Assembly: GCA_963695555.1 (NCBI GenBank) | Contig: CAVOGR010000001.1 | Span: 1,024,001-1,088,000, forward strand | Direction of reading: 5' to 3' | Length of the DNA stretch: 64,000 bases | Source of the DNA: an uncultured Gemmatimonadales bacterium | Lineage (GTDB): Bacteria; Gemmatimonadota; Gemmatimonadetes; Gemmatimonadales; GWC2-71-9 | Part shown: piece by piece, positions 18,218 through 37,179 of the stretch | Layout: each line of letters begins with the position of its first letter | Numbering within the stretch: position 1 is the stretch's first letter | Position numbers and translations under genes: made by a program | The notes under the pieces: model-generated | The model's database searches: none | The model's input: the letters and a program-made list of their open reading frames with translations, nothing else | Told to the model about the DNA's origin: nothing

Positions 18218-19204
18218 GTGCTCGTCGCGACGACGGAACGGCTCGACCGGTTCCTTGCTGATCAACTTGGCCTCTCCCGGACCCGTGCGGCTCGGCTCGT
18301 CGCCGGAGGCCATGTGTCCGTGGACGGGGTTCGCGCACGCGCGTCGCGCCGGTTGATCCGCGGGGAGCAGGTCACGGTGGAGGTTGCCGAGTCCGAGCCC
18401 CTGACAACGCTCAAGCCGGCGTCGATTCCCCTCACGGTGGTGTACGAAGACGAGGCGCTGGCGGTCATCGATAAGCCCGCCGGACTCGTCGTCCACCCTG
18501 CGCCTGGACATTGGGACGATACGTTGCTCAACGCATTGGTGGCGCGCGGGACGCCGTTGGCCGGTGGGGCGGAGGGCCGCCCCGGCATCGTGCATCGCCT
18601 GGATCGGGACACGTCGGGCCTCATGCTCGTGGCCAAGACGGAACAGGCACACCGGCGCTTGTCGAAGGCGTTGGCCTCCCGCCGGGTCTCCCGTTGCTAC
18701 GCGGCGATGACCTGGGGGCACCTGACCCAAAGCCCTACCACCATCGATGGCCCCATCGCTCGACATCCGGAGGATCGGAAGCGCATGACGGTGCTTGCCG
18801 GGGGCCGGTCGGCGCAGACCACCGCATGGGTCGTCGCACGCTACGGCCCCGTCGAACTGCTCCGCGTTGAACTCGGGACGGGCCGAACCCACCAGATCCG
18901 GGTCCACCTCAGCTACATCGGGCATCCGATCGTGGGTGACCCGGTCTACGGTGGTGGCGGAAGCCGGCGCATCTCGGGCCCCGATCGGAAGACCGCGGAG
19001 GCTATCGAGCGAGCGGCGCCACGCCAGGCACTCCACGCGGCGCTGCTCGGCTTCCGGCATCCGCTGACCGATGAGGAACTCGTGTTCACGTCCGAGTGGC
19101 CGGTCGATCTGAGGCCCGCGCTCGATGTGGCGGCAGATGACGCAAGTCTGGTTGCTGAAAGAGAACCGCTTCGGTATCTTCGTTTCTTCAATAGAGATGG
19201 CTAG
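18218..19204 (+). CDS. RluA/RluD-family pseudouridine synthase with S4 domain (start uncertain)
   Basis: ERLDRFL S4 domain, DKPAGLVVHP, HRLDRDTSG, GRTHQIRVH. Confidence 0.92.
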   Translation: MLVATTERLDRFLADQLGLSRTRAARLVAGGHVSVDGVRARASRRLIRGEQVTVEVAESEPLTTLKPASIPLTVVYEDEALAVIDKPAGLVVHPAPGHWDDTLLNALVARGTPLAGGAEGRPGIVHRLDRDTSGLMLVAKTEQAHRRLSKALASRRVSRCYAAMTWGHLTQSPTTIDGPIARHPEDRKRMTVLAGGRSAQTTAWVVARYGPVELLRVELGTGRTHQIRVHLSYIGHPIVGDPVYGGGGSRRISGPDRKTAEAIERAAPRQALHAALLGFRHPLTDEELVFTSEWPVDLRPALDVAADDASLVAEREPLRYLRFFNRDG

Positions 19205-19625
19205 TTCCGACCCGATGCGTGTGCTCGTCTTTCAGGTTGGAGACCTGGCATGCGGGATACCCGCCGAGTGGGTTCGCGAGGTCCTCCCGGCAGCCACGGC
19301 GACGCGAATCCCCGGTGCACACCCGGTCGTGGACGGCCTGGTCAACGTCCGCGGCAGGATTCTCACTGTGATCGACGGGCACCGCCTACTCAACCGAGCA
19401 CCGCTGCCCGAGCAAGAGGGGGTCACCATCATGGTGGACCTCGCCGGACACTCGTACGGTCTGCGGGTCAGCCAAGTGGACGATCTGTACGAAGTACGCG
19501 AGCAGGACCTCGAAGCGGCCACCGATGCGGCCGCAGGGCACGGTCATGTCGTGCAGGTCGAGGATGGCCCGCAGTTCGTTCTTCTCGGCATCGAATCCCT
19601 CCTGGCGCCGGTTGCCGGGACGTGA
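19197..19625 (+). CDS. cheW: Chemotaxis adaptor CheW
   Basis: VLVFQVG...VREV, TRIPGA..VVDGLVNVRGRILTVID. Confidence 0.85.
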   Translation: MASSDPMRVLVFQVGDLACGIPAEWVREVLPAATATRIPGAHPVVDGLVNVRGRILTVIDGHRLLNRAPLPEQEGVTIMVDLAGHSYGLRVSQVDDLYEVREQDLEAATDAAAGHGHVVQVEDGPQFVLLGIESLLAPVAGT

Positions 19626-19686
19626 CCAACGACCGGGTTCCAGCGTTGTTTCCGTTGCAGTGTCCCGTTCTCCGTGGAGGCAGTCT

Positions 19687-20049
19687 GTGAGCCACACCAT
19701 CCTCGTGTGCGATGACGCGATCTTCATGCGGACGATGATCGGCGATATCCTCACCGGAGCCGGGTATGAGGTCGTCGGCGAGGCGGAGACCGGCGTCCAA
19801 GCGGTGGAGCAGTACTCTCGGCTGAAGCCCGATCTCGTCACGATGGACATCGTCATGCCCGAAATGGGGGGGATCGACGCCGTTCGCGAGATCCGGCGCC
19901 TGGACCCCGACGCCAAGATCCTGATGTGCAGCGCTATGGGACAACAGGCACTCGTGGTCGAGGCGATCCAAGCCGGAGCCAAGGACTTTGTCGTCAAGCC
20001 ATTCCAGCCGTCCCGTGTGCTCGAGGCCGTTCAGCGCGTGTTGGGGTGA
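19687..20049 (+). CDS. cheY: Single-domain response regulator CheY (Bacillus/Thermotoga-like)
   Basis: DDAIFMR, PDLVTMDIVMP, MCSAMGQ, FVVKPF; SD GGAGG before the GTG. Confidence 0.92.
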   Translation: MSHTILVCDDAIFMRTMIGDILTGAGYEVVGEAETGVQAVEQYSRLKPDLVTMDIVMPEMGGIDAVREIRRLDPDAKILMCSAMGQQALVVEAIQAGAKDFVVKPFQPSRVLEAVQRVLG

Positions 20050-20052
20050 GTC

Positions 20053-21918
20053 ATGGACCGTGCCCGGTATACGGACTTGTTCCTGACGGAGGGTCGCGAG
20101 CATCTCGTGACATGCGCCCACCTTCTGCTCGAATTGGAGCAGGCACCCCGTGAGCTGGAACCGGTCCATGGCCTCTTCCGTGCCATGCATACGCTCAAGG
20201 GAATGGCAGCCACGATGGGGTATTCGCAAGTCACCGATCTGTCCCACCAGATGGAAACCGTGCTCGACGCGGTGCGTCAGGGAGAGCGCCGGGTAAACCG
20301 CCCGCTCATCGATGTTCTTCTCGAGACGGTGGATGCGCTGACGGCGGGTATCGAAACCGCTGTTGCAGGCCAGGACGCCGAGTTGGATTTTCGGGACCTC
20401 CTGGCCCGGCTGAACAAGAGGCCGCGCACGCGCAAACGGGTATCGGGCGATGCCGTGATACCCGAGACGAAGCCATCGCCTGCCGGTATGTGGGTCGAGG
20501 TCGTGATCGATCCGGCCGCTCCGATGCGCGGAGGCCGAGCGGCGGTGCTTCTCCGCGAGGCCGAAGCACTTGGCGCCGTCAGCACAGTCACGCCCTCAGC
20601 CAGCGAACTCGAGCGCGAGTCCTTCACGGGCCAATTTGGGTTCCATTTGGCGTCGGACGCCGCGCCGGCAGCTATTGCGACGCGGCTGCGAACCGTTGGT
20701 GACGTGCTCGAAGTCACGTGTGTTCCCCGTTCACCGGGGAGCCGGACGCCAGGCCCCGCCGAACGGGACGCAGCCAAGCGGTCGACACCGACTGTTCGCG
20801 TCGATCGCCGCCGGCTGGATGCCCTGATGAATCAGATCGGTGAACTCGTCGTGACCAAGAACCGGCTGGCATCGCTGGCGGCCGCCGGCGGTGGGGAGTT
20901 CTCGGCGGCCATTGATAGGATGGCCCGTTTGGTGTCGGAGATGCAGGCAGAGGTCATGTTGGCCCGATTGACTCCGGTTGCGGAGGTTGTCGATCGGTTC
21001 CCTCGGATGGTGCGGGACTTGTCGCGCGTAGTGGGCAAAGAAGTGTCGCTCAACGTGGAGGGGCGCCACATCGAGGTCGATCGCTCGATCCTGGAACAAA
21101 TCGGCGAGCCGCTGCTTCACCTCCTCCGCAACGCTATGGATCACGGCATCGAGTCAGTGGAGGCTCGAGTGAAGGCGGGGAAGCCGCGCGCGGGACAGTT
21201 ATCGCTCATTGCGGCGCGCGAACGCAATAGCGTGACGTTCGAAGTGCGCGATGACGGTGCAGGAATCGACCGCGCGGCGATCCTGGAGAAGGCCAGGCGA
21301 GAGGGATCCGTGGCTGAGCCCGTGACCTCGTTGACGGACGAACAACTGCTCGAGGTGCTTGCACGCCCCGGCTTCAGTACGGCCGAGCGGGTGACGAGCG
21401 TGTCGGGGCGCGGTGTCGGTGTGGATGTGGTCCTCACGCGCATTCGGGCGTTAGGGGGGTCGGTCGAGATTCGATCGGAGGTCGGCCACGGAACGTCGGT
21501 AACCTTGCGGCTTCCACTCACGGTCGTCCTGTTGCGTGCCCTCCTGGCCCGGGTCGGGCAGGAACGGTATGTGATTCCGGTGACCCATGTCGCGGAAACG
21601 GTGTTCCTCGACTCGCGGAGCGCCACGACCCTCGACGGGCGGCAGGCGCTCACTCTGCGCGATCAAGTTATTCCCACGGTGCGGCTGCGCGATCTGGCAG
21701 GATTTCCCAACGAGCCCACCCCGGCACGGCAACCGTGCGTGGTGTTCGAGGTCGGTTCGCGGCGCACCGCCTTGGTGGTCGATGCCCTCCTCGGCCAGGA
21801 GGAGATCGTGGTCGAGCCCTTCGAGCCACCGAGTGGCACGCCGGCAGTGTTTAGCGGAGCAACCATCCTATCGGACGGAGTACCGTCCCTGATTCTCGAC
21901 GCCGCAGCCGTGGTATAA
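20053..21918 (+). CDS. cheA: Chemotaxis histidine kinase CheA (P1-P2-P3-P4-P5)
   Basis: FRAMHTLKG (His46), HLLRNAMDHG, DDGAG, SGRGVG, C-terminal CheW-like domain. Confidence 0.95.
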   Translation: MDRARYTDLFLTEGREHLVTCAHLLLELEQAPRELEPVHGLFRAMHTLKGMAATMGYSQVTDLSHQMETVLDAVRQGERRVNRPLIDVLLETVDALTAGIETAVAGQDAELDFRDLLARLNKRPRTRKRVSGDAVIPETKPSPAGMWVEVVIDPAAPMRGGRAAVLLREAEALGAVSTVTPSASELERESFTGQFGFHLASDAAPAAIATRLRTVGDVLEVTCVPRSPGSRTPGPAERDAAKRSTPTVRVDRRRLDALMNQIGELVVTKNRLASLAAAGGGEFSAAIDRMARLVSEMQAEVMLARLTPVAEVVDRFPRMVRDLSRVVGKEVSLNVEGRHIEVDRSILEQIGEPLLHLLRNAMDHGIESVEARVKAGKPRAGQLSLIAARERNSVTFEVRDDGAGIDRAAILEKARREGSVAEPVTSLTDEQLLEVLARPGFSTAERVTSVSGRGVGVDVVLTRIRALGGSVEIRSEVGHGTSVTLRLPLTVVLLRALLARVGQERYVIPVTHVAETVFLDSRSATTLDGRQALTLRDQVIPTVRLRDLAGFPNEPTPARQPCVVFEVGSRRTALVVDALLGQEEIVVEPFEPPSGTPAVFSGATILSDGVPSLILDAAAVV

Positions 21919-21927
21919 GGAGGCCTG

Positions 21928-22548
21928 ATGGCGGATCTGCGACAGCTCACGGATCTGGAAATCGACGCGCTACGTGAGGTTGCCAGCATCGGAGCCGGCC
22001 ACGCCGCGACGGCACTGTCGCAAATGATTGAGCGCACCGTCATGATCAGTGTGCCGACGGTGCGCGTTGTCCCGCTCGAGGAGGTCGGGCAGCTCGTAGG
22101 ACGCCCGGACGACATCGTAGCCGCCGTGTTGATGCACATGATGGGCGATCTCACGGGGCGCACCCTCCTGGTCTTTCCCGAGAGCGCCGCCAAGCAGCTC
22201 TGCGACATCTTGTTGCGACGAACCGGCGGGTCCACCCTGACATTCGCCGTCATGGAACAATCGGGTCTCAAGGAGGTCGGGAACATCCTCAGCAGCGCCT
22301 ATTTCAACGCGCTGAGCGATTTTATGGGCATGATGCTCATGCCATCGATTCCCAGCTTGGTGATTGACTATTCCGCGGCAGTGTTGACCAGCACCACCTT
22401 GAATTTTGGGCACGCGCGTGATTCCGTCCTGTGTGTGGAGACCGACCTCAGGGTGCGAGATTCCGGGGAAAAGGTGACGGGCCACTTCATGCTCATGCCG
22501 GATCTCCCGTCCTTGCAGGCCATCTTCGACGCCGTCCGCCTTGCGTAG
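21928..22548 (+). CDS. cheC: CheY-P phosphatase CheC
   Basis: DALREVASIGAGHAATALS and SGLKEVGNIL repeats. Confidence 0.9.
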   Translation: MADLRQLTDLEIDALREVASIGAGHAATALSQMIERTVMISVPTVRVVPLEEVGQLVGRPDDIVAAVLMHMMGDLTGRTLLVFPESAAKQLCDILLRRTGGSTLTFAVMEQSGLKEVGNILSSAYFNALSDFMGMMLMPSIPSLVIDYSAAVLTSTTLNFGHARDSVLCVETDLRVRDSGEKVTGHFMLMPDLPSLQAIFDAVRLA

Positions 22549-22551
22549 CGC

Positions 22552-25269
22552 ATGGATGTTTCTGCGCTGTCCGACCGCGACCTCTCCATCCTCCGCGCCT
22601 TCGCGTCGCGGGTCGATCCATCCGATGCGGGCGGCCACAACAATCTGGGCGTGCTGTATTTTCGCAAAGGCCTGATTCCGGAAGCCATCGCCCAGTTCAC
22701 TCACGCGCTCGAACTCGATCCTCGAATGCAGGTGGCGCAGGACAATCTGCGCCTGGCGTACCACGGCACCGGATACTACGATCGCCGAGTCACCGAACTC
22801 CGGGAACATCTGCGCCGCGAACCGGAGGACCGGGACGCCCGGTGGGAGTTGGGCAAGGTGTACGCCTCGTTGAGACAGTACGATGCGGCCGCGGCCGAAT
22901 TCGAAGCCTTGCTCGCTCGGCATCCGTACGACGTGCGCGCGGTCGTGCAGCTTGGCCTGTGTGAAAAGGCGCGCGGCAACATTCCCCGGGCCGAGGAGTG
23001 GTTCAGCCGGGCGTGTCGGCTCGATCCCGAGAGTCCGGTGGCACGGTTCTACCTCGGTGAGGCTCTCTACAACCGGGGGCTGAACGAGCAAGCCTTGGTC
23101 GAACTGTCGCAGTCGGTTAGCCTGAATTCCGATAACGCCGAGGCCCAATACATTCTCGGCTTCGTCTATGGCGATCTCGGCCGGCATGAGGAGGCGCGGC
23201 GTGCGACCCGCCGGGCCATCGAGCTGAACCCGACCCTTGGCCGCGCGCATGCCAACTTGTCGCTCCGCCCTGACGAGGGCAGCGAGGCGGGCCGGTCCGC
23301 TGCCGCACCGGGTGACGCGAACGACCTTGCGGTTGCCGAGAACACGGCGCTTGCCCACTACAATTTGGGACTGGCCTTCCGCCAAAAAGGATACCATGCG
23401 GAGGCCCTCCGCGAGTATCGGCTCGCCCTCGAACACGGGGAAGAGCGCCAGCTCGTCCTCCAAGCCATGGCCGAGGTCCACCTGCTCAAGCGCGACCTGA
23501 GCGCCGCGCTCGAATTGTACGACCGGTTGGTGGTGGATTATCCGGACTCTCCAAAGCTCTGGAATGAACGAGGCGTCTGCCTCCAACAGGCCGGCCGCCG
23601 AGAGGCCGCCCTCGAGTCCTATCAGAGCGCCGTCGGTACGGACGAGACCTACGCCCTCGCCTGGAACAACCTCGGCGTGGCCCAGGCCCAGGTGCCCGAC
23701 TTCGATGCCGCGTCCGACGCCTTCCGGGCGGCGATCCGCCATAAGTCGGATCTTCTCGCCGCGCGGCTCAACCTCGCACTGCTGCTCTTTCAGCGTCGCC
23801 GTTTCCAGCTCGCGCTGGAGGCCTACCGGCATGCGCTGGCGGACGATCCGGACAATGCGGTCGCCTGGAACGGTGTGGGCCTGATTCTCATGGAATTGAA
23901 GCGATACGCCGACGCCAAGAATGCTTTCGCCAGAGCCGTCGAGACAGACCCCGAGCACGCCCCGGCCCACTATAACCTGAGCTTCGTCTTGAGCCAGCTC
24001 GGCGATTTCGACGGTGCGCTGCGCGAAACCAAACATGCGCTCGAATTGGAATCGTACTATGTACCTCAGCGGTACGATTTGACGATCGACCTCCAGTACG
24101 AGCATACAACCATTTCTGTGGCCCCGGTGCTCTCGGGCGACGAAGTCGCGGGTGAATTGCCGGACGACTTCGTCTTCGACGAGCGATTACTCGACGATCT
24201 CTTTGCGACGTTGGCGCCGGATGCGGATCAGTCGGATGACACGGCTCCCCAGCCGGGGCGTGAGCTGTCGCTCGCCCTGGCGCGCGACTACATCAGCAAA
24301 GGCCTCTTGGAGCTGGCCACGGCCGAACTGAATCGAGCGCGCCGGCGGGGCGCTTCCGCTGGCCAAGTGGCCGCGCTGTTAGGCGACATTTTTGCCAGAC
24401 GAGGGCTGCACGGCGAGGCACTGGAACGCTACCGCGAGGCGATCGACCTGGATCACCGCGATCTGGACGCCCGGGTTGGCGAGGTGCAGAGCCTCCTCGC
24501 CCTCGATCGTCTTGGTGAAGCGGCGCAGTCAGCGTCCGATCTCGAACCCATGGCAGCCGGAAGCGTCGACGCCTTGATGGTCTGCGCCAAGGTGCGCGTG
24601 CGCGTGGGGGAGCTGGTCCCGGCCCTCGATCTGCTCAAGGCGGCGCAGGCCTCCGCCCCGGAACGGGGTGAACTCTACCAACTGCAAGCCCAAGCAGCTG
24701 TGAAACTCGGCGACCTGGAAGCGGCCAGCGACGCATACCGGCACGCGCTCGCGCTGGACCCCAACCTGGTCATGGTGTGGCATGAGGTCGGCCAGTTGGA
24801 AGAGGCCCGACGCGACTGGACCGCGGCACGGGCGGCTTATGCGCAGGCGCTGGATCTGCTCCCCACCTTCATGGACGCGACGCTGGCACTCGCGGACGGC
24901 ATGCGTCGGCACGAATCGCCGCGTCAAGCGGTGAGCTATTTGGTCGAAGTCCTGGCCAGCGACCCCTATGAGTTCGAGGCCCTGGTGCTGCTCGGCCGCA
25001 GCCTGCTCGACGACGGCCGCCCGGATCGTGCCATCGAGGCATTCGATCGCGTCCTCAGGTTTGTGCCAGATCATGCCGACGCGTTGTATTTTCGAGGGCT
25101 CGCGTTGGAGCGGCAGCGGCGATTGGCAGAGGCCGTGGAATCCTGGCACCAGGCCATCCAATCCAATCCCGCCGGCCAGTACGCCCAGGCTGCCCGCCTC
25201 AGGATGCGGTCGGCCCGGGACCTCTCCGAAATCTTCAAGGTGCCGAGTGGAGTGAACGGTGGCGATTGA
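22552..25269 (+). CDS. Large tetratricopeptide-repeat protein (905 aa)
   Basis: Many TPR consensus units (e.g. HNNLGVLY...A..QF..ALELDP; AWNNLG; AHYNL); acidic central linker; no signal peptide. Confidence 0.9.
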   Translation: MDVSALSDRDLSILRAFASRVDPSDAGGHNNLGVLYFRKGLIPEAIAQFTHALELDPRMQVAQDNLRLAYHGTGYYDRRVTELREHLRREPEDRDARWELGKVYASLRQYDAAAAEFEALLARHPYDVRAVVQLGLCEKARGNIPRAEEWFSRACRLDPESPVARFYLGEALYNRGLNEQALVELSQSVSLNSDNAEAQYILGFVYGDLGRHEEARRATRRAIELNPTLGRAHANLSLRPDEGSEAGRSAAAPGDANDLAVAENTALAHYNLGLAFRQKGYHAEALREYRLALEHGEERQLVLQAMAEVHLLKRDLSAALELYDRLVVDYPDSPKLWNERGVCLQQAGRREAALESYQSAVGTDETYALAWNNLGVAQAQVPDFDAASDAFRAAIRHKSDLLAARLNLALLLFQRRRFQLALEAYRHALADDPDNAVAWNGVGLILMELKRYADAKNAFARAVETDPEHAPAHYNLSFVLSQLGDFDGALRETKHALELESYYVPQRYDLTIDLQYEHTTISVAPVLSGDEVAGELPDDFVFDERLLDDLFATLAPDADQSDDTAPQPGRELSLALARDYISKGLLELATAELNRARRRGASAGQVAALLGDIFARRGLHGEALERYREAIDLDHRDLDARVGEVQSLLALDRLGEAAQSASDLEPMAAGSVDALMVCAKVRVRVGELVPALDLLKAAQASAPERGELYQLQAQAAVKLGDLEAASDAYRHALALDPNLVMVWHEVGQLEEARRDWTAARAAYAQALDLLPTFMDATLALADGMRRHESPRQAVSYLVEVLASDPYEFEALVLLGRSLLDDGRPDRAIEAFDRVLRFVPDHADALYFRGLALERQRRLAEAVESWHQAIQSNPAGQYAQAARLRMRSARDLSEIFKVPSGVNGGD

Positions 25270-26407
25270 AGGGCCGCTAAAAGAACTCCACATCGACGAC
25301 GTCTTCCAGCTCATGGACTTGGGCCGAAAGACCGGCGTCCTGCACGTCACGTCCGAGCTGCGGGAAAACGCAGGCACCGTGTTCTTCGAGAACGGGTGGG
25401 TGGTGGGTGCCATGATCGCGACCAATCCGCATCCACTCGGGGAGCTGTTGATCCGGACGGGGAAAGTGGCCGAAGAAGACGTCGTCCGTGCACGGACCCT
25501 TCAGACAAGCCGCCCAGGCCGGCGCTTGGGGGAGCTGTTAGTGGAGATCGGAGCGATTTCCCGTCGGGAACTCGACCGACACATCCGTGCGCAGGTCGAG
25601 GAAGTCGTCTTCGAGTTGATGAGTTGGTCCGAGGGATACTTCCGCTTCGAGGAGGGAGAGCCGGGGCAGACTCCGGCCGAAGCCTCGTTTCGAATCGCAC
25701 CGGAGGCGCTGCTCATGGAGGCGGCGCGACGAATCGATGAATGGAGTCGGATCGTCGCCAAGATTCCGCATCAGGGGGTAGTGCCGGGGCTCAATCCGGA
25801 ACAGGCCACCGCCACCGCCGCGCTGGAACTGGTCCCGTTCGAGTGGGAAGTGCTTGCGGCCGTCGATGGAACGGCCACGGTTCGCGACGTGGCCCGGCGG
25901 GTTCGACAGCCCGAGTTCGACGTCGCCAAGACGCTCTTTGGACTCGCGTCGGCCGGCATCATCATCATCCGCGATGCGACGACCGACGGCGGCAACGGTG
26001 CCGGCCGGGGAGTGGAGGTGCTGTCGGCCCAGGCCGATGACCACCTCCAGGCTGGGGACCTGGCCGGAGCCCACCTCGTGGCCCAGGACGCCGTCCTCGC
26101 CTATCCCGACGACGGGGAGGCCTTTCTCGTCCTCGCCCGGGTGTCCCTTGCCAACGGGCGATTCGGCGAAGCCCTGGATGCCGCTCATCGGGCGCTTGCC
26201 CTCCAAGGTCAAACGGGGCCTGGACTTCGGCTGCTCGGTCTGGCTCTTGCAGGGGCAGGTCGTTTTGGGGACGCCTTGGGAGCGTGGGACCGCTGGAAGG
26301 GCTTGGAGACCATGGATCCAGCCGAACGAAGACATTGGGACACGATCGATCGCCTGGAGGATGCGGCGAAGCTCTTGAATAATGCGGTCCGTGGGCGCCA
26401 TGAGTGA
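25259..26407 (+). CDS. DUF4388 (PatA-N-like) protein with MshEN-like repeats and C-terminal TPRs
   Basis: MAIEGPLKEL..DDVFQL...KTGVL; LMSWSEGYFRF; LLMEAARRIDEW. Confidence 0.8.
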   Translation: MAIEGPLKELHIDDVFQLMDLGRKTGVLHVTSELRENAGTVFFENGWVVGAMIATNPHPLGELLIRTGKVAEEDVVRARTLQTSRPGRRLGELLVEIGAISRRELDRHIRAQVEEVVFELMSWSEGYFRFEEGEPGQTPAEASFRIAPEALLMEAARRIDEWSRIVAKIPHQGVVPGLNPEQATATAALELVPFEWEVLAAVDGTATVRDVARRVRQPEFDVAKTLFGLASAGIIIIRDATTDGGNGAGRGVEVLSAQADDHLQAGDLAGAHLVAQDAVLAYPDDGEAFLVLARVSLANGRFGEALDAAHRALALQGQTGPGLRLLGLALAGAGRFGDALGAWDRWKGLETMDPAERRHWDTIDRLEDAAKLLNNAVRGRHE

Positions 26408-27248
26408 CAGTATCCGGGCCATGACGGCCCAGCTGGTCAGCGATCCCGCCAGCATGATCTTCCTGCCGCTGGGAGAGGCCCTGCGCCAGCGCGGACAGCT
26501 CGACGCCGCCGAGAAAGTGGCGCTGGCTGGCCTTGGGCGCTACTCCGAATCGGCCGATGCGCACGACCTGTACGCCAGGATTCTCGGGGATCGCGGTCAA
26601 CTCGAATTGGCATTCGATGAGTGGGACATCGCCCTCCGGCTGGAGCCGGACCACGTCGGGGCGCACAAAGGCATCGGGTTCCTGTATTTCGTGGCTGGCG
26701 AGCTCGACCGGGCATTGGCCCACCTCGAGACGGCCGCCCGGAAGCTGCCGGACGATGATGGGGCCCAAACAGCCCTGGCTCGGGTCAAGGAGGCTCTCGC
26801 TCGCCGAGCGGCGGCAGGGAATGGGGCCGGACGGGAGACAGATACGGCGGTGCTGACTGAGGAGCAGGCGGTGGTACCCGGTGCCGACCCATCCCGGCTG
26901 TTCCTGGGCTTGGAAGGAGCCGAGGACGGCCTCCTGCTTCTCGATACGAGGGGACTTCGCCTCGGTGGTGGATTGACCAGTCCCGAGGGCGACGACGTAG
27001 CCGATGCCGTCTCGGCCCACCTCGCGGGCGTGTCGCAGGAAGCTTCCCGCACTGCCCGGCTACTCGGGCTGGGGGCGTGGATCAGCCTGGCTGCAGAGTC
27101 GCCGGATGGTCATCTGTTCGTGGTGGCTCCAACGCCGGAGACTCTGTTGCTTCTCGTTCGGGAGCAGAGCGTTCCCTTGGGACGCCTGGGCGTGGTTGCC
27201 GACCATGCGGCCGGGGTCGCGCGGGCTTGGCTCGAGGGATTGCAGTGA
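26400..27248 (+). CDS. TPR protein with C-terminal roadblock/LC7-like domain
   Basis: N-terminal TPRs (FLPLGEALR, AHKGIGFLY); C-terminal LLLLDTRGL...AVSAHLAGVS...LGLG...LLLLV..SVPLG roadblock pattern. Confidence 0.7.
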   Translation: MSDSIRAMTAQLVSDPASMIFLPLGEALRQRGQLDAAEKVALAGLGRYSESADAHDLYARILGDRGQLELAFDEWDIALRLEPDHVGAHKGIGFLYFVAGELDRALAHLETAARKLPDDDGAQTALARVKEALARRAAAGNGAGRETDTAVLTEEQAVVPGADPSRLFLGLEGAEDGLLLLDTRGLRLGGGLTSPEGDDVADAVSAHLAGVSQEASRTARLLGLGAWISLAAESPDGHLFVVAPTPETLLLLVREQSVPLGRLGVVADHAAGVARAWLEGLQ

Positions 27249-27595
27249 TGCCGGAGTTCGCAACTGCACTCGACTTGATCACCCGGGTCCACGGCGTCCG
27301 CGGCGCCATGCTGGTGTCAGTCTCAGACGGACTCGTTGTCGCCGAATCGTCCATGGACGGTGTGGACGGCGCGCCGGTCGCGGCGCTCACCGCAAGCCTT
27401 GCCGGCCGGCTGCGGCGCACCACTGAAGCGGCGGGACGACGACTGCCGACCTTCATCCACCTCCGGGCGGCAACAGGGACCGTGCTCGCGGTGCCGTCCA
27501 ACGACGACCTGCTCGTCGTGACGATTGGCGCTCCGGACATCAATGTCGGCCTGGCTCGGTTGGAAATGCTCCACGTCGCGGAGCGAGGGATTTGA
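27248..27595 (+). CDS. Roadblock/LC7 domain protein (MglC-like)
   Basis: GVRGAMLVS.SDGLVV, VAALTASL, INVGLARLEM. Confidence 0.85.
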   Translation: MPEFATALDLITRVHGVRGAMLVSVSDGLVVAESSMDGVDGAPVAALTASLAGRLRRTTEAAGRRLPTFIHLRAATGTVLAVPSNDDLLVVTIGAPDINVGLARLEMLHVAERGI

Positions 27596-28056
27596 TGCGA
27601 GCCGTTGAGCCATGGGTGGAAGGTCCGCTCGCGGCGTTCCTGGATGAGTCGGCTGCGCGGCTCACGCTGTTGATGACCTCGGCTGGCCAGGTACTGGCCC
27701 AGCATGGGTTCACGCGCGCCTTCGACGTCATGTCTGCCGCGGCGTTGGGCGCTGGGATCATGGCGTCGACCGACGAGCTTGCGCGTCTGATGGACGCGCC
27801 GCCCTTTCGCGCCTTGGCGCACCAGGGAGTCCATCACGGCTTGTTCCTTTCCGGCTTCGACACGCCCCAAGGACGGTGGATCGGACTCGTGGTCTTCGGG
27901 CCTGAGAGTTCACTCGGGCTGGTTCAGCTGTTCTTCCAGCGCCTCGTGGCGGACTTGGCCAAGCAGGCCCCGACCGAAGCTCCAAGCAACCGGGTGTTGG
28001 GATCAGATTTCGAGGACGAGCTCAACGCCAGCCTGCGAACCCTTTTCGGTCAGTAG
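27595..28056 (+). CDS. mglB: MglB-like roadblock protein (putative GAP of MglA)
   Basis: AAALGAGIMAST.ELARL...F..LAHQG and SLGLV resemble MglB; lies directly upstream of mglA. Confidence 0.75.
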   Translation: MRAVEPWVEGPLAAFLDESAARLTLLMTSAGQVLAQHGFTRAFDVMSAAALGAGIMASTDELARLMDAPPFRALAHQGVHHGLFLSGFDTPQGRWIGLVVFGPESSLGLVQLFFQRLVADLAKQAPTEAPSNRVLGSDFEDELNASLRTLFGQ

Positions 28057-28059
28057 CAT

Positions 28060-28662
28060 ATGTCGCTTGTCAACTTCACGTCCCGCGAGATCACCTGTAA
28101 GATCGTCTATTACGGACCAGGCCGATCCGGCAAGACGAGCAATCTTCAGTACATCTATGGTCGGGTTCCGGAAGCGCGCCGGGGCCGCATGGTGTCGCTC
28201 GCCACCAAAGGCGACCGCACGCTGTTTTTCGATTTTCTCCCGCTCGAGCTCGGGACAATCTCAGGATTCGTCACACGATTCCAGTTGTACACCGTGCCCG
28301 GGCAGGTGTACTACAATGCGACCCGGAAGCTGGTGTTGCAGGGTGCAGACGGTATCGTTTTTGTGGCCGACAGCCAAGCCCGGCGATTCGACGATAACCT
28401 CGAGAGCCTCCAGAACCTGCAAGAGAATTTGCTCGCGCACGGTGTCGATATTCGGGAATTGCCCCTCGTCTACCAATACAACAAGCAGGATCTCCCTGCG
28501 GATCTCATCCTCGGGCCGGACGAACTCGATGATGCCTTGAATTTTCGAGCGGTCCAGAGCTTCGGCGCCGATTGTCTGAGCGGGAACGGCGTGTTTGAGA
28601 CATTGCGGGGCATTTCAGAGCTCGTGTTGAAGCGCCTGGCCGCGGGGAGCCGGGTTGCGTGA
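28060..28662 (+). CDS. mglA: MglA small Ras-like GTPase
   Basis: KIVYYGPGRSGKTSNL, DRTLFFDFLP, LYTVPGQ, YNKQDLP. Confidence 0.95.
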   Translation: MSLVNFTSREITCKIVYYGPGRSGKTSNLQYIYGRVPEARRGRMVSLATKGDRTLFFDFLPLELGTISGFVTRFQLYTVPGQVYYNATRKLVLQGADGIVFVADSQARRFDDNLESLQNLQENLLAHGVDIRELPLVYQYNKQDLPADLILGPDELDDALNFRAVQSFGADCLSGNGVFETLRGISELVLKRLAAGSRVA

Positions 28663-30611
28663 TCTCGCTGCTCAAGCCCTCGTGTCGCTTCACCACGTTG
28701 GTGGTGGCACCCACCAACCAACTTGCGGTGACCGCGGCCCGGGCCGTGGCGGACTCTCCGGGCCGCATCTATAACCCGCTCTACATTTACGGTGGGCCAG
28801 GACTGGGCAAGACCCACCTGCTGATGGCCATTGGGCACTCGGTGTTGGACATCGACCCCTCGTGCACCGTGGAATACCTGAGCATCGAGGACTTCGCCTC
28901 TGCCTGGCCCACTGCGAGGAATGCCGGCGAAGAGGAAGCCTACCGCCGGCACTATGTCGAGGCCGAGGTGCTGCTGCTGGATGACATTCACCTCCTCGCC
29001 TATCGTCGCGACCTGCAGCTGGAAATTCTCCGGGTTCTCGACAGTGTGCTCGAGCGGAATCACCAGGTCGTCATGGCATCTGATCGGGCGCCGAACCGGA
29101 TCGACGGATTGGACGAGCGTCTGGCACGGCGTTGTGCCGCTGGCTTGGTGACCGATGTAGCTACCCCGGCGCCCGAGACCCGGCTCGAGGTCGTGCGCCG
29201 CAGGGTGCAGGAGCGCGGCGCGGTGTTCCACCCGGACATCCTCGAACTGCTGGCCGGCGCCGGCCAATCGGATCTCCGACAGCTGCTCGCTCTCGTGGAC
29301 AAGTTTCAAGAGGTGCAGCGGCGCACGCATCTGCCGCTCACCGTCGAGGCGGCCCGGGGACTCCTCAACGACATGGGCCTGGCAGAGGCCACCGGTCCAG
29401 CCGGTGACGGTCAAAGTCTTCGGCCTCACGCCGACGAGTTCGGAACCTTTCTTAGCGATGTGACCACCACCGTGGCCGGACAGCTCGAAGCGTGGCGAAG
29501 TCGAGTGGCCGAGGCCATCCTCCGGTGGGAGGGGGAAGGATTCCGCACTCGCCGCCTCGAGGCGTTGCTCCAGGCCGATCTTCCAGCGGATCCCAACGCG
29601 ATTCTCGAATCTTTCACGGCCGATGTGGAACGGCTGCGCGGTCTCGAATCAGAAGCCCAGACCGTATCGCCCGACCTGGTCGGGTCGCCGTTGTTCCGGG
29701 ATCCGGACCAGGTGGCCGCCGCCGCCGCCTTGGTCGAGCATGCGAGGCAAGGCCGGCATCCGCTTCCGGCGCCTTCTCGCATGTGGCGCCTAGAGGACCT
29801 CGTCGAGGCGCCGGGCAATCTGGACGCGCTCAGCTCGGCGTGGCGTGTCATAGACCAACCGGGAACCCGTCACAACCCGCTCGCTGTCGTTGCGCCGAGC
29901 GGGTGTGGGAAGACCCATGTGCTCCATGGCATCGCCAACAAGCTCGCGGAGGCACCCAACGCGACGATCGCATGTCTCACCGCCAGCGACTTCATCGCGG
30001 ACCTCGAGGCGGCGCGCGAGGCCAACCGGCTCTCGGCCTGGCAATCACGGTATCGCGGGGTAACCGGGCTCCTGATCGACGACATCCACCGGTGGGCCGA
30101 CCACCCGCCGCTCGGCGCCGAGCTGGTGGAGCTGCTCGACGCACTGCTCGAGGCCCGCGCCCAACTGGTGGTCAGCTCGGTCGTTCCCCTGCCGCAGTTG
30201 GCGCTGGACCGGGGCATCATGGACCGCCTCCAGGGCGGCCTCGTTGTGGCCCTCGCTCCTCCAGACCGTGACATCCGGTCCCGCGTCGTCGAGCGACTCC
30301 TGGCCGCCAAGCTCAGTCTGGTGGATCCCGAGCTGACATCCTACCTGGCGAATCGACCGGCGGAGTCGGTGCGAAGTCTGCAAGGCCTGGTGCACCGGTT
30401 GCTCAACAACGCCGAGGTCCAAGGGAAAACGCCGACGGTGGCGTTTGCCCGCGAGCTCCTGGAGGGAATGCCGCAGGCGCCGCCCGCCCGCGAGCAGAGA
30501 ACCCGGCTGAGCGGTGTTGTGGTGCCTGTGGCCGGCGGCCTCCGGAGCCGCGAGAAAATGGTCTGGCATTGGCCCGATGCCGGTGACCGGGTAGTGGAGG
30601 AGTGGAGCTGA
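28659..30611 (+). CDS. Protein with two tandem DnaA/Hda-like AAA+ modules and no DNA-binding domain IV
   Basis: NPLYIYGGPGLGKTHL / LLLDDIH and NPLAVVAPSGCGKTHV / LLIDDIH. Confidence 0.85.
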   Translation: MISLLKPSCRFTTLVVAPTNQLAVTAARAVADSPGRIYNPLYIYGGPGLGKTHLLMAIGHSVLDIDPSCTVEYLSIEDFASAWPTARNAGEEEAYRRHYVEAEVLLLDDIHLLAYRRDLQLEILRVLDSVLERNHQVVMASDRAPNRIDGLDERLARRCAAGLVTDVATPAPETRLEVVRRRVQERGAVFHPDILELLAGAGQSDLRQLLALVDKFQEVQRRTHLPLTVEAARGLLNDMGLAEATGPAGDGQSLRPHADEFGTFLSDVTTTVAGQLEAWRSRVAEAILRWEGEGFRTRRLEALLQADLPADPNAILESFTADVERLRGLESEAQTVSPDLVGSPLFRDPDQVAAAAALVEHARQGRHPLPAPSRMWRLEDLVEAPGNLDALSSAWRVIDQPGTRHNPLAVVAPSGCGKTHVLHGIANKLAEAPNATIACLTASDFIADLEAAREANRLSAWQSRYRGVTGLLIDDIHRWADHPPLGAELVELLDALLEARAQLVVSSVVPLPQLALDRGIMDRLQGGLVVALAPPDRDIRSRVVERLLAAKLSLVDPELTSYLANRPAESVRSLQGLVHRLLNNAEVQGKTPTVAFARELLEGMPQAPPAREQRTRLSGVVVPVAGGLRSREKMVWHWPDAGDRVVEEWS

Positions 30612-32230
30612 TGGCCATCAAGGGCAGCCTCAAAGAGGCCAGTCTTCCCGATGTGATTCAGCTTCTGGCCATGGGCCAGAAGACGGGCTGCTTGGCCGTC
30701 GCCCACCGCCACAATTTCGGCTACGTCTACTTCCGAAACGGCCGCATCATCTACGCCTCCATTGTCAACCGGCGCGATCGGCTCGGCGATATCCTGGTGA
30801 ACAGCGGTCGAATCTCCCCCGAGCAATTGGCGCAAGCCATCGACCTGCAAGGCACATTCGATGACAAGAAGCTCGGCCAGATATTGGTCGATACCGGAGC
30901 GATTTCGCGCGAGGAATTGGTGCAGTACGTGGCCTTACAAATCGAGGAGGCCGTCTATTTCCTCTTCACGTGGAACTCGGGAACATTCAATTTCGAAGTC
31001 GATGTGCAGCCTGCAAGTCAGGATGTGCTCGTCTCCATCGCCCCGGAAACATTGCTGCTCGAGGGCGCCAGGCGGGTCGACGAGTGGAGTCTCATCCAAC
31101 ACAAGATCCCGAGCTTCGATCTCATCTTCGAAGTCCGCGAGAGCCGGATCGCCGCGTCGACAGCCACGCTCTCTCCAGAACAAGAGCGGTTGCTCCCCCT
31201 TCTCGACGGACAGCGCGACGTCAGCCAATTGATCGACGCGGCCGGCATGGGTGAATTCGAGGTGGGCAAGGCACTCTTCGGGCTGATCACGGCCGGCTTC
31301 GTTCACCGTGTCGGCACGTCGGCCACGAGTGAAGTCAGCCGGGCCAACGAGGGGCGGATCGAGGAGCACCGCAATCTCGGAATCGCCTTCTACCGGGCCA
31401 GCATGTTGGAGGAGGCCGAGAGGGAATTCCGGCGCGTGGCGGAACTGCGCCCCGCCGATGGGAACGCACCTTTTCATCTCGGACTCATTGCTGTCAAGCA
31501 CGGACGGTGGGAGGAAGCGATCGCGATGTTCCAACGTGCGGTGGAGAAGGGAGGACCGCGTGCGAGTGCGCTCCACAACTTGGCATTCGCCATGGAGCGA
31601 CTCGGGCGGCTGACCGAAGCCGAAGCCACCTATGCGGCGGCCGTCGACAGGGCGCGGGACAATCCGCGCATCATGCTGGGGTGGGGGATCTCGGCACTGC
31701 TGCGCGAAGACCACGCGCTGGCGTCCGCGCGCCTGATCCGGGCGCGGGAACTCATGGGCGAGGCGGATCCGCCCGCTACCTGGTACTGGGCGGCGACACT
31801 GGCGCATGCCGGGTCCGGCAACCAGGCCGCGGCATTGGAGGTGGCTCAGGCAGGAGTGGCGTCCTATCCGGCGAGCGCCGTGTTGAACAACAATCTCGCG
31901 GTGCTCTTGGAGTTGAACGGGGACATCGCCGGCGCCGAGACGCAGCTCGACCGCGCGTTTACCGAGGAGCCCACGCTGCCGCAGATCTCGAAGAACATGG
32001 CGGATTTGTTGTATCGGGCCGGCAAATACGACGAGGCCGGTGCGGCCTACGAGCGAGTCATCAAACTGAATCCCGATCTGGGTGACGATCTCTATTTCAA
32101 ATTGGGGAACATTTCGTTCAAGCGACGGGACTTCGCGCAGGCCAAGGCCTATTGGCAGCGGGCTACCGAACTCAATGCTGGGCACGAACTCGCGCGGTCG
32201 AATCTCGAAATGCTGGCATCGGTATCGTGA
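30611..32230 (+). CDS. DUF4388 protein with tandem MshEN-like motifs and TPRs
   Basis: MAIKGSLKEASLPDVIQLL; RLGDILVNSG...; LLLEGARRVDEW; C-terminal TPRs. Confidence 0.82.
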   Translation: MAIKGSLKEASLPDVIQLLAMGQKTGCLAVAHRHNFGYVYFRNGRIIYASIVNRRDRLGDILVNSGRISPEQLAQAIDLQGTFDDKKLGQILVDTGAISREELVQYVALQIEEAVYFLFTWNSGTFNFEVDVQPASQDVLVSIAPETLLLEGARRVDEWSLIQHKIPSFDLIFEVRESRIAASTATLSPEQERLLPLLDGQRDVSQLIDAAGMGEFEVGKALFGLITAGFVHRVGTSATSEVSRANEGRIEEHRNLGIAFYRASMLEEAEREFRRVAELRPADGNAPFHLGLIAVKHGRWEEAIAMFQRAVEKGGPRASALHNLAFAMERLGRLTEAEATYAAAVDRARDNPRIMLGWGISALLREDHALASARLIRARELMGEADPPATWYWAATLAHAGSGNQAAALEVAQAGVASYPASAVLNNNLAVLLELNGDIAGAETQLDRAFTEEPTLPQISKNMADLLYRAGKYDEAGAAYERVIKLNPDLGDDLYFKLGNISFKRRDFAQAKAYWQRATELNAGHELARSNLEMLASVS

Positions 32231-32243
32231 TCCGCGACGACGC

Positions 32244-32735
32244 ATGACGGATCCACACGAGGTCCTCGTCGACATCGCCGAGTATCGGGTGGGGGCCGGT
32301 GTCGACATCCTCGTTGCATTGGGACTCAGCAGCTGCGTGGCCGTGGCGGTGCACGATCCCGTGACCAACATTGGAGGTCTCGCTCACATTCTTCTTCCGT
32401 CGCCGTCGCTCACGGGGGAGCGTGGCAAGCCCGGCAAATTCCCCCAAACCGCCATCCCCCTCCTCGTCGAGGGCATGGTTGAGGCCGGGGCCGGACGGCG
32501 GCGGCTCCACGCGCGGCTGATCGGCGGGGCAAGCATGTTTGGTGCCTTGCAGCAGGGTCGGACCATGCCAATGGGAGAGCGCAATCTGGCCGCGGCGCGG
32601 GCCGTATTGCGGGCGGAGCGAATTCCGGTGAGTGGTGAGGCAACGGGCGGCGACTTCGGCCGGTCGCTTCGTTTTTCGGTCGATGGCGGCCGCATCGAGA
32701 TCCGCGCCGTGGGTCGCGATCTCACTGCCCTGTGA
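32244..32735 (+). CDS. cheD: Chemoreceptor glutamine deamidase CheD
   Basis: LGLSSCVAV, GGLAHILLP, ARLIGGASMF, GERN, TGGDFGRS. Confidence 0.9.
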   Translation: MTDPHEVLVDIAEYRVGAGVDILVALGLSSCVAVAVHDPVTNIGGLAHILLPSPSLTGERGKPGKFPQTAIPLLVEGMVEAGAGRRRLHARLIGGASMFGALQQGRTMPMGERNLAAARAVLRAERIPVSGEATGGDFGRSLRFSVDGGRIEIRAVGRDLTAL

Positions 32736-32909
32736 CGTGACATTGACTCTCGTAGCGGACGATGTCGCGCCGAGCTGGACCAGTGAGGGTTCATCGCCCG
32801 GCGGATGCCTCACGCCGCGCGCATGCGGTCGACGACGGCTCGAAGCAGGGGAAACGAATACTCGCGTGTCGGCAATCCACCGACAGTTCGAACAGCACGG
32901 AGTAAGCCG

Positions 32910-33782
32910 ATGACGGAAGAGTGGCTGGCGCAGTTGCGGACCCAGGGAGCCGAGATCGCCGCGCGGTTGGAGCAGGCGAGCTCACCCGGGGAACGGGAGG
33001 CGCTCAAGCGCGACATCATTGCGTATTTCAAGCTGGTCGATGGGGCGCTCCTCGAGTTGACCGATGTCAAGGAGTCGATCCGTGGGCTGGTGGAGCGGTA
33101 CAAACAGGTGGCAGGCACGCCGGACCCTCGGCAGAGCCCGCACTTCTCCGGAGACCGGCCGGCAATTCGGGCTGATCACTTGGGCGCGTCCACCTACATC
33201 GACAAGGGATGGAACCTCATTGCCTTGGGCGACCACGAAGGTGCCATTCAGGCACTGACGAAGGCGCTCAGTCTCTCGCCCGAAGACTCGCAGGCACGCT
33301 CGCTGCTCGGCTGGGCGCAGATGCTCAGCGAGACCTACGACGACGCGCTCGCCACCTTCTCCAAGGTGTTGTCGAAGGAGCCCGCAAATTCGTTGGCTCG
33401 CATCAATGTGGGCTACGTCTGCCTCAAGAAGGGAATTTTTGGCGAAGCCATCGAGCATTTGTCCAAAGCCATCCGCCTGGACAACGATCGCAAGGCGACG
33501 CTCTACGCGCACTATTACCTTGGGTTGGTATACTTAGACCGCGAAATGTACGAGGACGCCGTCACCTTCTTTCGCAAGACCATCGATCTCGGGCCAAACT
33601 TGATCGAGGCCCACTACGAGCTCGGACGGGCACTTTGGTTTTCGGACGACCAGGAAGCCGCCGTCGCTGCGTGGGAAACGGGCGTCGCCACCAACCGGTT
33701 CAATCCATGGGGGAAGCGGTGTCAGGACATGCTCGATCTCGTCCGAGCGGGAGGTGATGTCCCTCGCACGCCTTCCTCCTAG
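32910..33782 (+). CDS. Coiled-coil plus TPR protein
   Basis: N-terminal heptad helix followed by about 5 TPR units; SD GGAG upstream. Confidence 0.85.
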   Translation: MTEEWLAQLRTQGAEIAARLEQASSPGEREALKRDIIAYFKLVDGALLELTDVKESIRGLVERYKQVAGTPDPRQSPHFSGDRPAIRADHLGASTYIDKGWNLIALGDHEGAIQALTKALSLSPEDSQARSLLGWAQMLSETYDDALATFSKVLSKEPANSLARINVGYVCLKKGIFGEAIEHLSKAIRLDNDRKATLYAHYYLGLVYLDREMYEDAVTFFRKTIDLGPNLIEAHYELGRALWFSDDQEAAVAAWETGVATNRFNPWGKRCQDMLDLVRAGGDVPRTPSS

Positions 33783-33850
33783 CTCTCGCCCTCGCCGCCG
33801 CGGTCCATCAACAACAGCCGAGCGCCGTCCAGGTCGGGCAGGTCACGGCG

Positions 33851-34648
33851 GTGGCTTGGCCCGAGGAGATGGATCTCGCCCTCGCGCTCGCCGAGGTCGC
33901 GAGCCGGCCGGTGGTATGGCCGGGCCTCGGACGGCAATCACCCGGGCCGCTCCGGCTCATCGTCCTCGCGCCCGGTCGCGATCTCGACTCGTTGTCGCGC
34001 CGCCGGCTTCCCCGCTGGACGGCTGGGCTCGCGTATCCCGCCGCGCGAACGATCATGGTGCGGTCGCGGGGCTCGAGTGCATTCACCGTCCTGCGCCACG
34101 AACTCGCCCACCTCGCCCTCCACGACGCGGTGCGTTCCCGGCTTCCACTGTGGTTTGACGAAGGGTACGCGTCCTGGGCGGCTGGGGAGTTCGACCGGCT
34201 GCAACAGCTGAACGTGAATCTGGCGGTGCTCCGGGGGCGCATTCCCGATTTCGATCAGCTGGATCGAGCCTTGCGCGGACCCCCGACGACTGCGGAGGCA
34301 GCCTACGCGCTCGCGGCGACGGCTGTGATCGATCTGGCCCAGCGAACCCGCGGTGGGCAGCTTGCGCCCCTGTTCCAGGAGCTCCAGGGCGGCGTGGGTT
34401 TCGATAGCGCGGTTCGGAGCACGGTTGGGCTCACGGTGGATCAGTTCGAGGTGCGGTGGAGCCAAGCGATCCGGCGGCGCTACAATCTGCTTACCTGGCT
34501 CGCGGCCGGCGGGCTTTGGACCCTGTTGGGCGGGCTGGTCCTGGTGGCGCATTTCCTCCGCCGCCGCCGTGACCTCCCGCGCCGCCAGGCCTTGGACGAC
34601 GGGTGGGTCATTCCGGAACCGGAAGAGGAGGAATCCGCGGCGTTCTAG
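33851..34648 (+). CDS. Peptidase MA-like (gluzincin) protein with C-terminal TM helix; true start probably about 33764
   Basis: HELAH followed by PLWFDEGYA; hydrophobic C-terminal segment followed by RRRR. Confidence 0.7.
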   Translation: MAWPEEMDLALALAEVASRPVVWPGLGRQSPGPLRLIVLAPGRDLDSLSRRRLPRWTAGLAYPAARTIMVRSRGSSAFTVLRHELAHLALHDAVRSRLPLWFDEGYASWAAGEFDRLQQLNVNLAVLRGRIPDFDQLDRALRGPPTTAEAAYALAATAVIDLAQRTRGGQLAPLFQELQGGVGFDSAVRSTVGLTVDQFEVRWSQAIRRRYNLLTWLAAGGLWTLLGGLVLVAHFLRRRRDLPRRQALDDGWVIPEPEEEESAAF

Positions 34649-34850
34649 CCCGGATCGAAGCACCTCCTGTCCATGATAGGTGACATCGCGATTGAGAGCC
34701 GCCCTGAGATTGCCGCTCAAGTCGAGGGGTGACAAGCGGATGTGCCTCTCTTCCCGGCTGGCACGTCCGTTGCCTTTGAGGGGTGTGAGATGGTTGGGCC
34801 TCGCGGAATGGTGGGATCGGGAACGCGGCCGGCGGGAGGCTGTCGCCTGG

Positions 34851-34879
34851 TTGACCGATCCCGACCAGGGGGGTATCGT
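34851..34879 (+). promoter_or_regulatory. Candidate sigma70 promoter for the small ORF and tRNA-Val
   Basis: TTGACC-17 nt-TATCGT; ATG 8 nt downstream. Confidence 0.55.
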
Positions 34880-34887
34880 CAACGATT

Positions 34888-35079
34888 ATGCCCACTTCGC
34901 AACCGCCCGCCACCCGTGAGCGCGGCCCTCTCGCGCGCCGGAACGTTTTCCTCCTCGGCGCGGCACTGCTATCATTAGGGGTTGGGTACGGACTCCTGGT
35001 GTCAGGAGAGGCAAGCGCGGCGGCGGTGTTCCTGGTGCTCGGGTATTGCGTGCTCTTTCCCTTGGGCATTGCGCTCTAG
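34888..35079 (+). CDS. Small two-TM membrane protein, DUF3098-like
   Basis: 63 aa: RNVFLLG...GYGLL...A.VFLVLGY.V.FP.GI pattern. Confidence 0.6.
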   Translation: MPTSQPPATRERGPLARRNVFLLGAALLSLGVGYGLLVSGEASAAAVFLVLGYCVLFPLGIAL

Positions 35080-35112
35080 GGCGTATTCGTCGGGCGCCAA
35101 AGCTGGGTTGTT

Positions 35113-35187
35113 GGGCGAATAGCTCAGCTGGTTCAGAGCGCCTGCTTTACACGCAGGAAGTCGGGGGTTCGAATCCCTCTTCGCCCA
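35113..35187 (+). tRNA. tRNA-Val(TAC)
   Basis: Acceptor GGGCGAA/TTCGCCC, anticodon arm CCTGC-TTTACAC-GCAGG, T-loop GTTCGAATC; CCA not encoded. Confidence 0.97.
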
Positions 35188-35266
35188 TTAGGCTGCTACC
35201 GCTCTCCCTCGGGCGAGCATACTCTAGGGCCGGTGGCCCGCGTTTCTTGCTGGAGGCCAATTGGCT

Positions 35267-36976: not shown

Positions 36977-37026
36977 GGGCCTTCCTCAGGAGGAAGCCGC
37001 TCTCTATATTGCGGTGCTCGAAACCG

Positions 37027-37101
37027 GGGGCTGTAGCTCAGTTTGGTTAGAGTGCCGCACTGTCACTGCGGAAGTCGCGGGTTCGAGTCCCGTCAGCCCC
37101 G
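37027..37101 (+). tRNA. tRNA-Asp(GTC)
   Basis: Acceptor GGGGCTG/CAGCCCC, anticodon arm CCGCA-CTGTCAC-TGCGG, T-loop GTTCGAGTC; CCA not encoded. Confidence 0.97.
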
Positions 37102-37115
37102 CTCCCGACATTCCA

Positions 37116-37152: not shown

Positions 37153-37179
37153 CGTAATCAACCTCGTGCCCGGCGTCTC

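Follow-up and report, generated by a model that had tools for sequence, protein, structure and literature searches.

The described proteins closest to the one reported here are the initiator DnaA and its paralogue Hda, and the closest described gene sets are those of MglA-SgmX in Myxococcus and the PATAN proteins in cyanobacteria. Domain III of DnaA (PF00308; 8bv3/8btg, T. maritima 2z4r, A. aeolicus 1l8q/2hcb/3r8f) combines an AAA+ fold with Walker A and B motifs, box VII arginines, sensor II and the ISM helices, all of which are common to it and the present protein. DnaA-trios are captured in B. subtilis DnaA by residues that include Asn187 and Ile190 (PMC10721633). Hda (TIGR03420), the RIDA factor of E. 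coli, is likewise a DnaA paralogue that lacks domains I and IV and has an arginine finger in box VII, and it requires an N-terminal clamp-binding motif (PMC5397184). In Myxococcus the TPR protein SgmX connects MglA to pili (PMC7668184), PATAN domains (= DUF4388) bind PilB1 in Synechocystis (10.1101/2021.06.11.447907), and PATAN genes have been noted close to mglA (PMC4316618, whose main text, in its available part, does not contain DnaA). For these systems, the available parts of the same three sources name neither a DnaA-type ATPase nor a tail-bearing partner.

The protein described here is encoded in a 64,000-nucleotide stretch of Gemmatimonadales DNA, called the window below. In contrast to DnaA, it has two copies of domain III, no domain I or IV, and an extra helical unit and tail, and its gene is dispensable and lies away from the dnaA-dnaN locus. 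Unlike Hda, it has two modules, a canonical Walker A lysine and no N-terminal clamp-binding motif, and it is encoded in a signalling operon. MglA, Roadblock, TPR and PATAN/DUF4388 proteins are found together here, as in the Myxococcus and cyanobacterial systems, in a piliated, apparently non-flagellated cell; however, the pair formed by the ATPase and its partner persists here without mglA. No published description of the tandem protein was found in a search over titles, abstracts and main texts, largely of open-access papers; the gene could still appear in the neighbourhood tables of PMC4316618. It is apparently an undescribed variant of the DnaA clade, and it probably works outside replication.

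Gene array

The tandem ATPase gene belongs to an array that is closely followed by rsmH and the dcw cluster, with the following order on the forward (+) strand.

19125..22548, +: cheW-like gene (from sequence reading alone), cheY, cheA and cheC
22552..26407, +: 905-aa TPR protein, then the first DUF4388/TPR protein
26400..27595, +: TPR-Roadblock gene (26400-27248) and second Roadblock gene (27248-27595)
27595..28056, +: Roadblock protein, MglB-like, under the NCBIfam cut-off
28060..28662, +: small GTPase with Arf/small_GTP matches in the scans, which we take from its context to be MglA-like
28659..30611, +: tandem DnaA-type AAA+ protein, 650 aa, GTG start
30611..32230, +: downstream partner, 539 aa, with DUF4388/PATAN and an MshE-related c-di-GMP motif, then TPRs
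32082..34648, +: cheD, TPR protein and peptidase MA gene, the end of the array before rsmH

The GTG of the ATPase gene overlaps the stop codon of mglA, as had been read from the sequence, and this overlap is 4 nt long; the stop of the ATPase gene overlaps the ATG of the partner by 1 nt. The MshE-related c-di-GMP motif of the partner covers residues 57-110 (53.3 bits, cut-off 38). At 32230-32910 of the window cheD follows directly after the partner, and most relatives have an array about 3 kb longer. No match to CheR or CheB was found in this 87% complete genome. A second MglA-like gene lies elsewhere in the genome (G000 C1:845345-845788; 61% identical over 148 aa), and most relatives also have two. 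Further upstream in the window (14123-17272), a gene that is presumably isoleucyl-tRNA-synthetase-like appears to be broken over several frames, probably by sequence errors in the assembly. One RNA run (X1) covers 18500-38400 at a flat depth of 4-14, the pattern expected of DNA carry-over, and its contigs span both junctions of the ATPase gene independently of the assembly.

Architecture and fold of the tandem protein

The 650-aa protein can be divided into five parts, all on the same strand.

28668..29378, +: AAA+ module 1 (residues 4-240), with Walker A/B, sensor I, both box VII arginines and sensor II, and with altered DnaA-trio pocket residues
29433..29498, +: helix A (residues 259-280), retained in ATPase-less mini forms, a predicted docking motif
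29472..29753, +: helical unit of about 95 aa (residues ~272-365), without a Pfam family for this copy
29781..30467, +: AAA+ module 2 (residues 375-603), with Walker A/B, R285 and sensor II; sensor I Asp replaced, and R281 replaced in this copy
30543..30611, +: C-terminal tail (residues 629-650) behind a disordered spacer, a predicted docking motif

Pfam scans (E≤0.01) found PF00308 twice and neither DnaA_N (domain I, PF11638) nor Bac_DnaA_C (the domain IV helix-turn-helix, PF08299), with the AAA+ region beginning at residue 4-6; this is the result that an earlier reading of the DNA without database searches (the sequence-only reading) had predicted. The two modules share 34% identity over 233 aa. 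An AlphaFold2 model built from 83 rows (mean pLDDT 88.6, pTM 0.48) contains two DnaA-type AAA+ folds whose mutual position is not fixed, a helical middle at 260-363, and disorder at residues 246-261 and 609-630. The top fold match is domain III of B. subtilis DnaA (8bv3; rmsd 1.4 Å, TM 0.96 by target). The proposal of two DnaA domain III-like modules joined by a helical linker is thus borne out, and the Walker A motifs (28791-28814, 29892-29915) and the two Walker B motifs all lie where they had been placed. A misassembled duplication, which that reading had named as a possible objection, is excluded because the gene is full-length in many genomes across much of Gemmatimonadota, the phylum being assigned from the source names of homologues. 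Within the tail, W638 is invariant (62/62 rows). Conservation scores are 0.66 for the tail and 0.62 for the helix, next to 0.70 and 0.60 for the ATPase cores and 0.20 and 0.34 for the spacers.

The way in which the protein scores also explains its 'DnaA' names in databases. TIGR00362 has a cut-off of 343.9, which the whole protein passes at 349.2 only by the addition of two stretches; the modules singly score 213 and 140.8, whereas the true DnaA of the genome scores 511.2. Hence the 'DnaA' names arise from summed stretches. Some databases label homologues 'DnaA/Hda family protein'.

Nucleotide, arginine and single-stranded DNA residues

Residues were surveyed in 68 proteins, which came from 70 loci (two of them out of frame) and gave 65 unique sequences. 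Four were dropped (one each unpublished, near-identical, truncated and with a frameshifted tail) and two single-module forms were set apart, leaving 59 tandem proteins. In E. coli numbering, module 1 retains K178 and D235/D236 in all 59, D269 in 55, R281 in 58, R334 in 55 and the Hda-type arginine finger R285 in 54. Module 2 retains K178 in 56, D236 in 53, R281 in 58, R285 in 58 and R334 in 46, and D269 in only 14. Every tandem protein has at least one module with the complete set of K, T/S, DD, R281, R285 and R334 (both modules in 41, module 1 alone in 12, module 2 alone in 6, neither in 0). In this copy, module 2 carries Gly at the R281 position (Arg in 58 of 59 tandem homologues), and its sensor I residue is Val. 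These two residues are the one correction to the motifs that had been proposed. At three of the loci the reading frame is interrupted, with module 1 out of frame with the remainder in L066 and L067 and the tail out of frame in L054, by assembly error or natural split.

The DnaA-trio pocket was followed at five positions of B. subtilis DnaA (E183, N187, I190, R202, E228). All 31 Gemmatimonadota DnaAs examined have N187 and I/V190. Module 1 (n=59), by comparison with the B. subtilis protein (PMC10721633), has Glu in place of Asn187 in 50 and His in place of Ile190 in 40. In module 2 (n=59), D, G or E replaces N187, and I/V (51), R (57) and E (58) are kept. The full pocket is thus not found in the tandem protein, and this copy reads S,P and A,E. 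Judged by these residues, the single-stranded DNA pocket of module 1 is decayed and module 2 retains part of it.

In quick trees with SH-aLRT support only, modules 1 and 2 and the single-module forms separate from 37 canonical DnaAs (SH-aLRT 96; 93 in a second tree), and the single-module forms cluster beside module 1. A single duplication is a plausible source of both modules on this basis, although fast evolution might also pull the modules together.

A canonical dnaA was expected elsewhere in the genome and is present on contig C2, where a 465-aa DnaA carries the sole Bac_DnaA_C of the genome and is followed by a clamp-like ORF, taken as dnaN from its own sequence. Domain II of this DnaA holds a clamp-binding-like pentapeptide (L001:5462-6859 on G000 C2, residues 92-96; further cases in L074-L084), which occurs in 12/12 genomes of this order and 0/19 outside it, and could allow DnaA of this order to bind the clamp directly. 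The pentapeptide is still present in one genome in which the tandem gene was not found (G043) and in two with mini forms (G036 and G072), and it is missing from families whose tandem protein has intact ATPases. That the clamp-like motif of DnaA makes the tandem protein an Hda substitute was rejected on the distribution of both.

Distribution and the constant partner

The DUF4388-TPR partner lies directly after the ATPase gene in all of 40 hand-picked wide loci, two of which have no upstream mglA. A class sample of 201 genomes was then covered with profiles for the partner, the linker and the helix/tail. The partner was found in 83 and the linker in 75, all inside the 83; the other 8 partner genomes have a mini or short-linker form. 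The helix/tail profile matched 81 genomes, 80 of them inside the 83. In total, 84 genomes hold some form of the gene, 83 of them with the partner (the one extra being a tail match only), and neither any form of the gene nor the partner was found in 117, several of them single-contig. These tallies count two unpublished genomes (G057, G097), without which they are 82, 81 and 117 of 199 and on which no claim depends, and the counted genomes are kin, so that co-occurrence is to be read as a pattern and not as statistics.

Co-occurrence with operon MglA is not obligate for the tandem ATPase. Of the 83 pair genomes, at least 14 have no operon mglA, namely 10 of family f7 and G210, G052, G072 and G074. 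In f7, the identical 10 of 45 genomes hold both genes and one non-operon MglA, and rluD is directly upstream of the pair in the four loci read. The ATPase-partner pair stays put where che and mgl genes are lost. In genus g10 (L055, L071) the operon mglA is strongly diverged (35-41%), the 905-aa TPR gene is mostly gone and the pair is intact. Another class shows, in 5/5 loci, a single ATPase, an acidic spacer, a tail that is similar by eye, and then a TPR-only gene; the fetched DNA of these loci gave no match to MglA. The tail HMM (8 bits) missed the tails of nine single-module homologues of that class, where likeness is again by eye. The constant neighbour of the ATPase gene is the overlapping downstream DUF4388/MshEN-like/TPR gene, rather than mglA, and the stress that the sequence-only reading laid on mglA was misplaced.

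Mini forms without ATPases

Five genomes that gave no match to the linker profile hold an ORF of 60-70 aa, built from the linker's first helix plus the tail, that abuts the partner. A family search for such minis gave 26 matches out of 151, and 7 of the 12 loci opened were further minis, which brings the total to 12 genomes in 5 genera, all of family f2. The stop-start overlap with the partner is preserved, and pN is lower than pS in 6/6 mini pairs (e.g., 0.057 vs 0.456), which indicates purifying selection and thus maintained genes. Among the 10 complete mini partners, the c-di-GMP-like insert is missing in 9 and the last TPRs in all 10, while TPR1 and the DUF4388 halves remain. The mini forms, being confined to one family, may derive from one or a few events of origin.

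Other lineages have one ATPase only, or two ATPases with the helix alone. Furthermore, in G050 and P0373 helix, linker and tail follow an unrelated N-terminal domain that resembles a hydrogenase. Three proteins (L188:6363-8363 in G050, P0373 and P0385) begin with a region like the Fe-hydrogenase large subunit, followed by a Pro-rich spacer and then helix and linker, with the tail in L188 and P0373. This deletion series, together with the helix and tail on an unrelated domain, argues that the motifs form an autonomous mobile unit to which the ATPases are accessory. The helix and tail are the irreducible part, and they likely dock on the adaptor.

The helical unit in other proteins

The linker of this copy has no Pfam family and no Foldseek match at E≤0.001, and its fold gave no usable match in Atlas. 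Its profile matched 498 representatives at E≤0.001, and in about 28 of the best 150 of these the unit of about 95 aa is repeated 4-19 times. The names of the repeat-bearing clusters include three Thermoplasmata or Thermoplasmatota and one Methylacidiphilaceae; the others carry no taxon. Five proteins (P0245, P0252, P0259, P0274, P0371) resemble the tandem protein in that the same unit is fused to DnaA domain III without a match to Bac_DnaA_C. They differ from it in that they have 6-8 repeats and a single ATPase, frequently with zinc ribbons, and gave no tail match. Their ssDNA-pocket residues are intact and their ATPases group with canonical DnaA and apart from modules 1 and 2, so the pairing with the helical unit may be independent. 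These proteins are probably archaeal.

A search for linker fusions in proteins of 1139-3250 aa found none among 1772 candidates and was insensitive, as such proteins were found later. An apparent linker-DUF4388 fusion (P0260) is out of frame and an artefact. The N-terminus of the repeat-fused DnaA proteins looked like PATAN by eye; this likeness was rejected on an HHalign probability of 1.6% (E 0.032, 45 columns), a comparison that beat 10/10 shuffles and is not significant, and Pfam shows no DUF4388 there.

Proposed mechanism and alternatives

The protein is proposed to be a two-headed, DnaA-derived AAA+ ATPase whose helix and tail dock on the partner, and whose ATPases cluster or tune this adaptor in a chemosensory/MglA/c-di-GMP pathway, probably one for pili; we rate this reading as evenly poised between right and wrong. 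Helix 259-280 and tail 629-650 would dock on the co-translated DUF4388/MshEN-like/TPR adaptor, most likely on its TPR part, since this is the only region common to all partners. The ATPase modules, to judge from their residues, may assemble head-to-tail and ATP-dependently in the manner of DnaA domain III, and the assembly could then cluster or reset the adaptor. The adaptor would read c-di-GMP as its input, and the output would be type IV pili rather than replication. The genome encodes PilB, four PilT and two MCP matches and 14 GGDEF matches above cut-off, and gave no match to flagellin, an absence made weak by its 87% completeness. Adjacency of the ATPase and partner genes can mean co-regulation only, and the helix and tail could instead pack against one another or have a third protein as their target. 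The part of the ssDNA pocket that module 2 retains also speaks against this reading. The sequence-only reading had suggested a repurposed initiator-clade ATPase, which agrees with modules that keep their nucleotide and oligomer residues and lie outside canonical DnaA in two trees; the filament scaffold it offered as one option is compatible with the same residues.

Its other option was regulation of DnaA, in an Hda-like manner or by co-assembly, and this link to replication is not supported. That the modules co-assemble with DnaA as cap, spacer or arginine-finger donor and so couple signalling to initiation, with the docking motifs just localising them, is a minority possibility. The conservation of R281, R285 and R334 in both modules and a fold nearly identical to DnaA domain III would suit it, the pentapeptide in DnaA of this order (12/12 genomes) could stand in for the motif of Hda, and adaptor docking is compatible with it. 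However, the gene was not found in 117/201 class genomes and is ATPase-less in 12, so the ATPases can be deleted; the pentapeptide does not track intact ATPases (G043, G036, G072); and, as a weak point, no DnaA-box match with ≤1 mismatch occurs in window 17000-39000, where about 0.9 are expected. A true Hda, acting as a clamp-loaded inactivator of DnaA, is highly improbable. It would account for a DnaA-like AAA+ protein with an arginine finger and no domains I and IV, and for the database names that mention Hda, but a clamp-motif pattern that recovers E. coli Hda at residue 6 gave 7 internal and no N-terminal matches in 71 family proteins, and the TIGR03420 score of 144 is under the cut-off of 194.8, with the protein nearer to DnaA than to Hda.

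Three further alternatives keep the signalling context. With the same docking, the output might be cell division or the polarity of budding, by way of the adjacent dcw cluster, and not pili, since rsmH is about 8-11 kb downstream in many loci, including those of mini-bearing genomes, and the pair holds its position when che/mgl genes go. This seems rather unlikely, as the pair is wholly missing in many lineages, dcw adjacency may be inherited synteny, and pili are the target of the characterised PATAN and MglA-TPR proteins in the available parts of the sources cited above. It is distinctly unlikely that the tandem ATPase is a direct effector of operon MglA-GTP: translational coupling speaks for it, with the overlap of 4 nt here and a start ≤17 nt from the mglA stop in 65/66 loci with both calls, but operon mglA is missing in at least 14/83 pair genomes and 5 other-class loci, whereas the first downstream gene is never lost in the examined loci. 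Finally, the target of helix and tail could lie outside the locus, in PilB/PilC, a receptor array or the membrane, with the downstream gene merely co-regulated. G050 has a second helix/tail protein whose adjoining ORFs, as read, show no DUF4388/TPR-like ORF, although that protein can reach the partner in trans; given gain and loss together with the partner in 83/84 positive genomes and the stop-start overlap kept in minis, such a target is improbable.

Significance

Docking on the downstream adaptor, the preferred reading, lends itself to direct test, because nature provides a deletion series that ends in a 60-aa protein with a 438-aa partner. DnaA domain III has its known role in the control of replication, and a phylum-wide paralogue that can shed its ATPases and still retain two short motifs suggests that signalling has reused the motor of the initiator. 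This work also flags as misnamed thousands of proteins called DnaA, and it defines a helical repeat without a name, common to Thermoplasmata-named proteins. More tentatively, the DnaA filament motor may be a plug-in signalling polymer, joined by a mobile helix-tail tag to a c-di-GMP-responsive PATAN/TPR adaptor, such that assembly of the DnaA type, driven by ATP, would build or reset a polar hub for signalling, with a second pairing in the probably archaeal repeat proteins; this is possible rather than likely. If true, the second pairing of a DnaA motor with the helical unit would point to a wider, replication-independent role of DnaA domain III.
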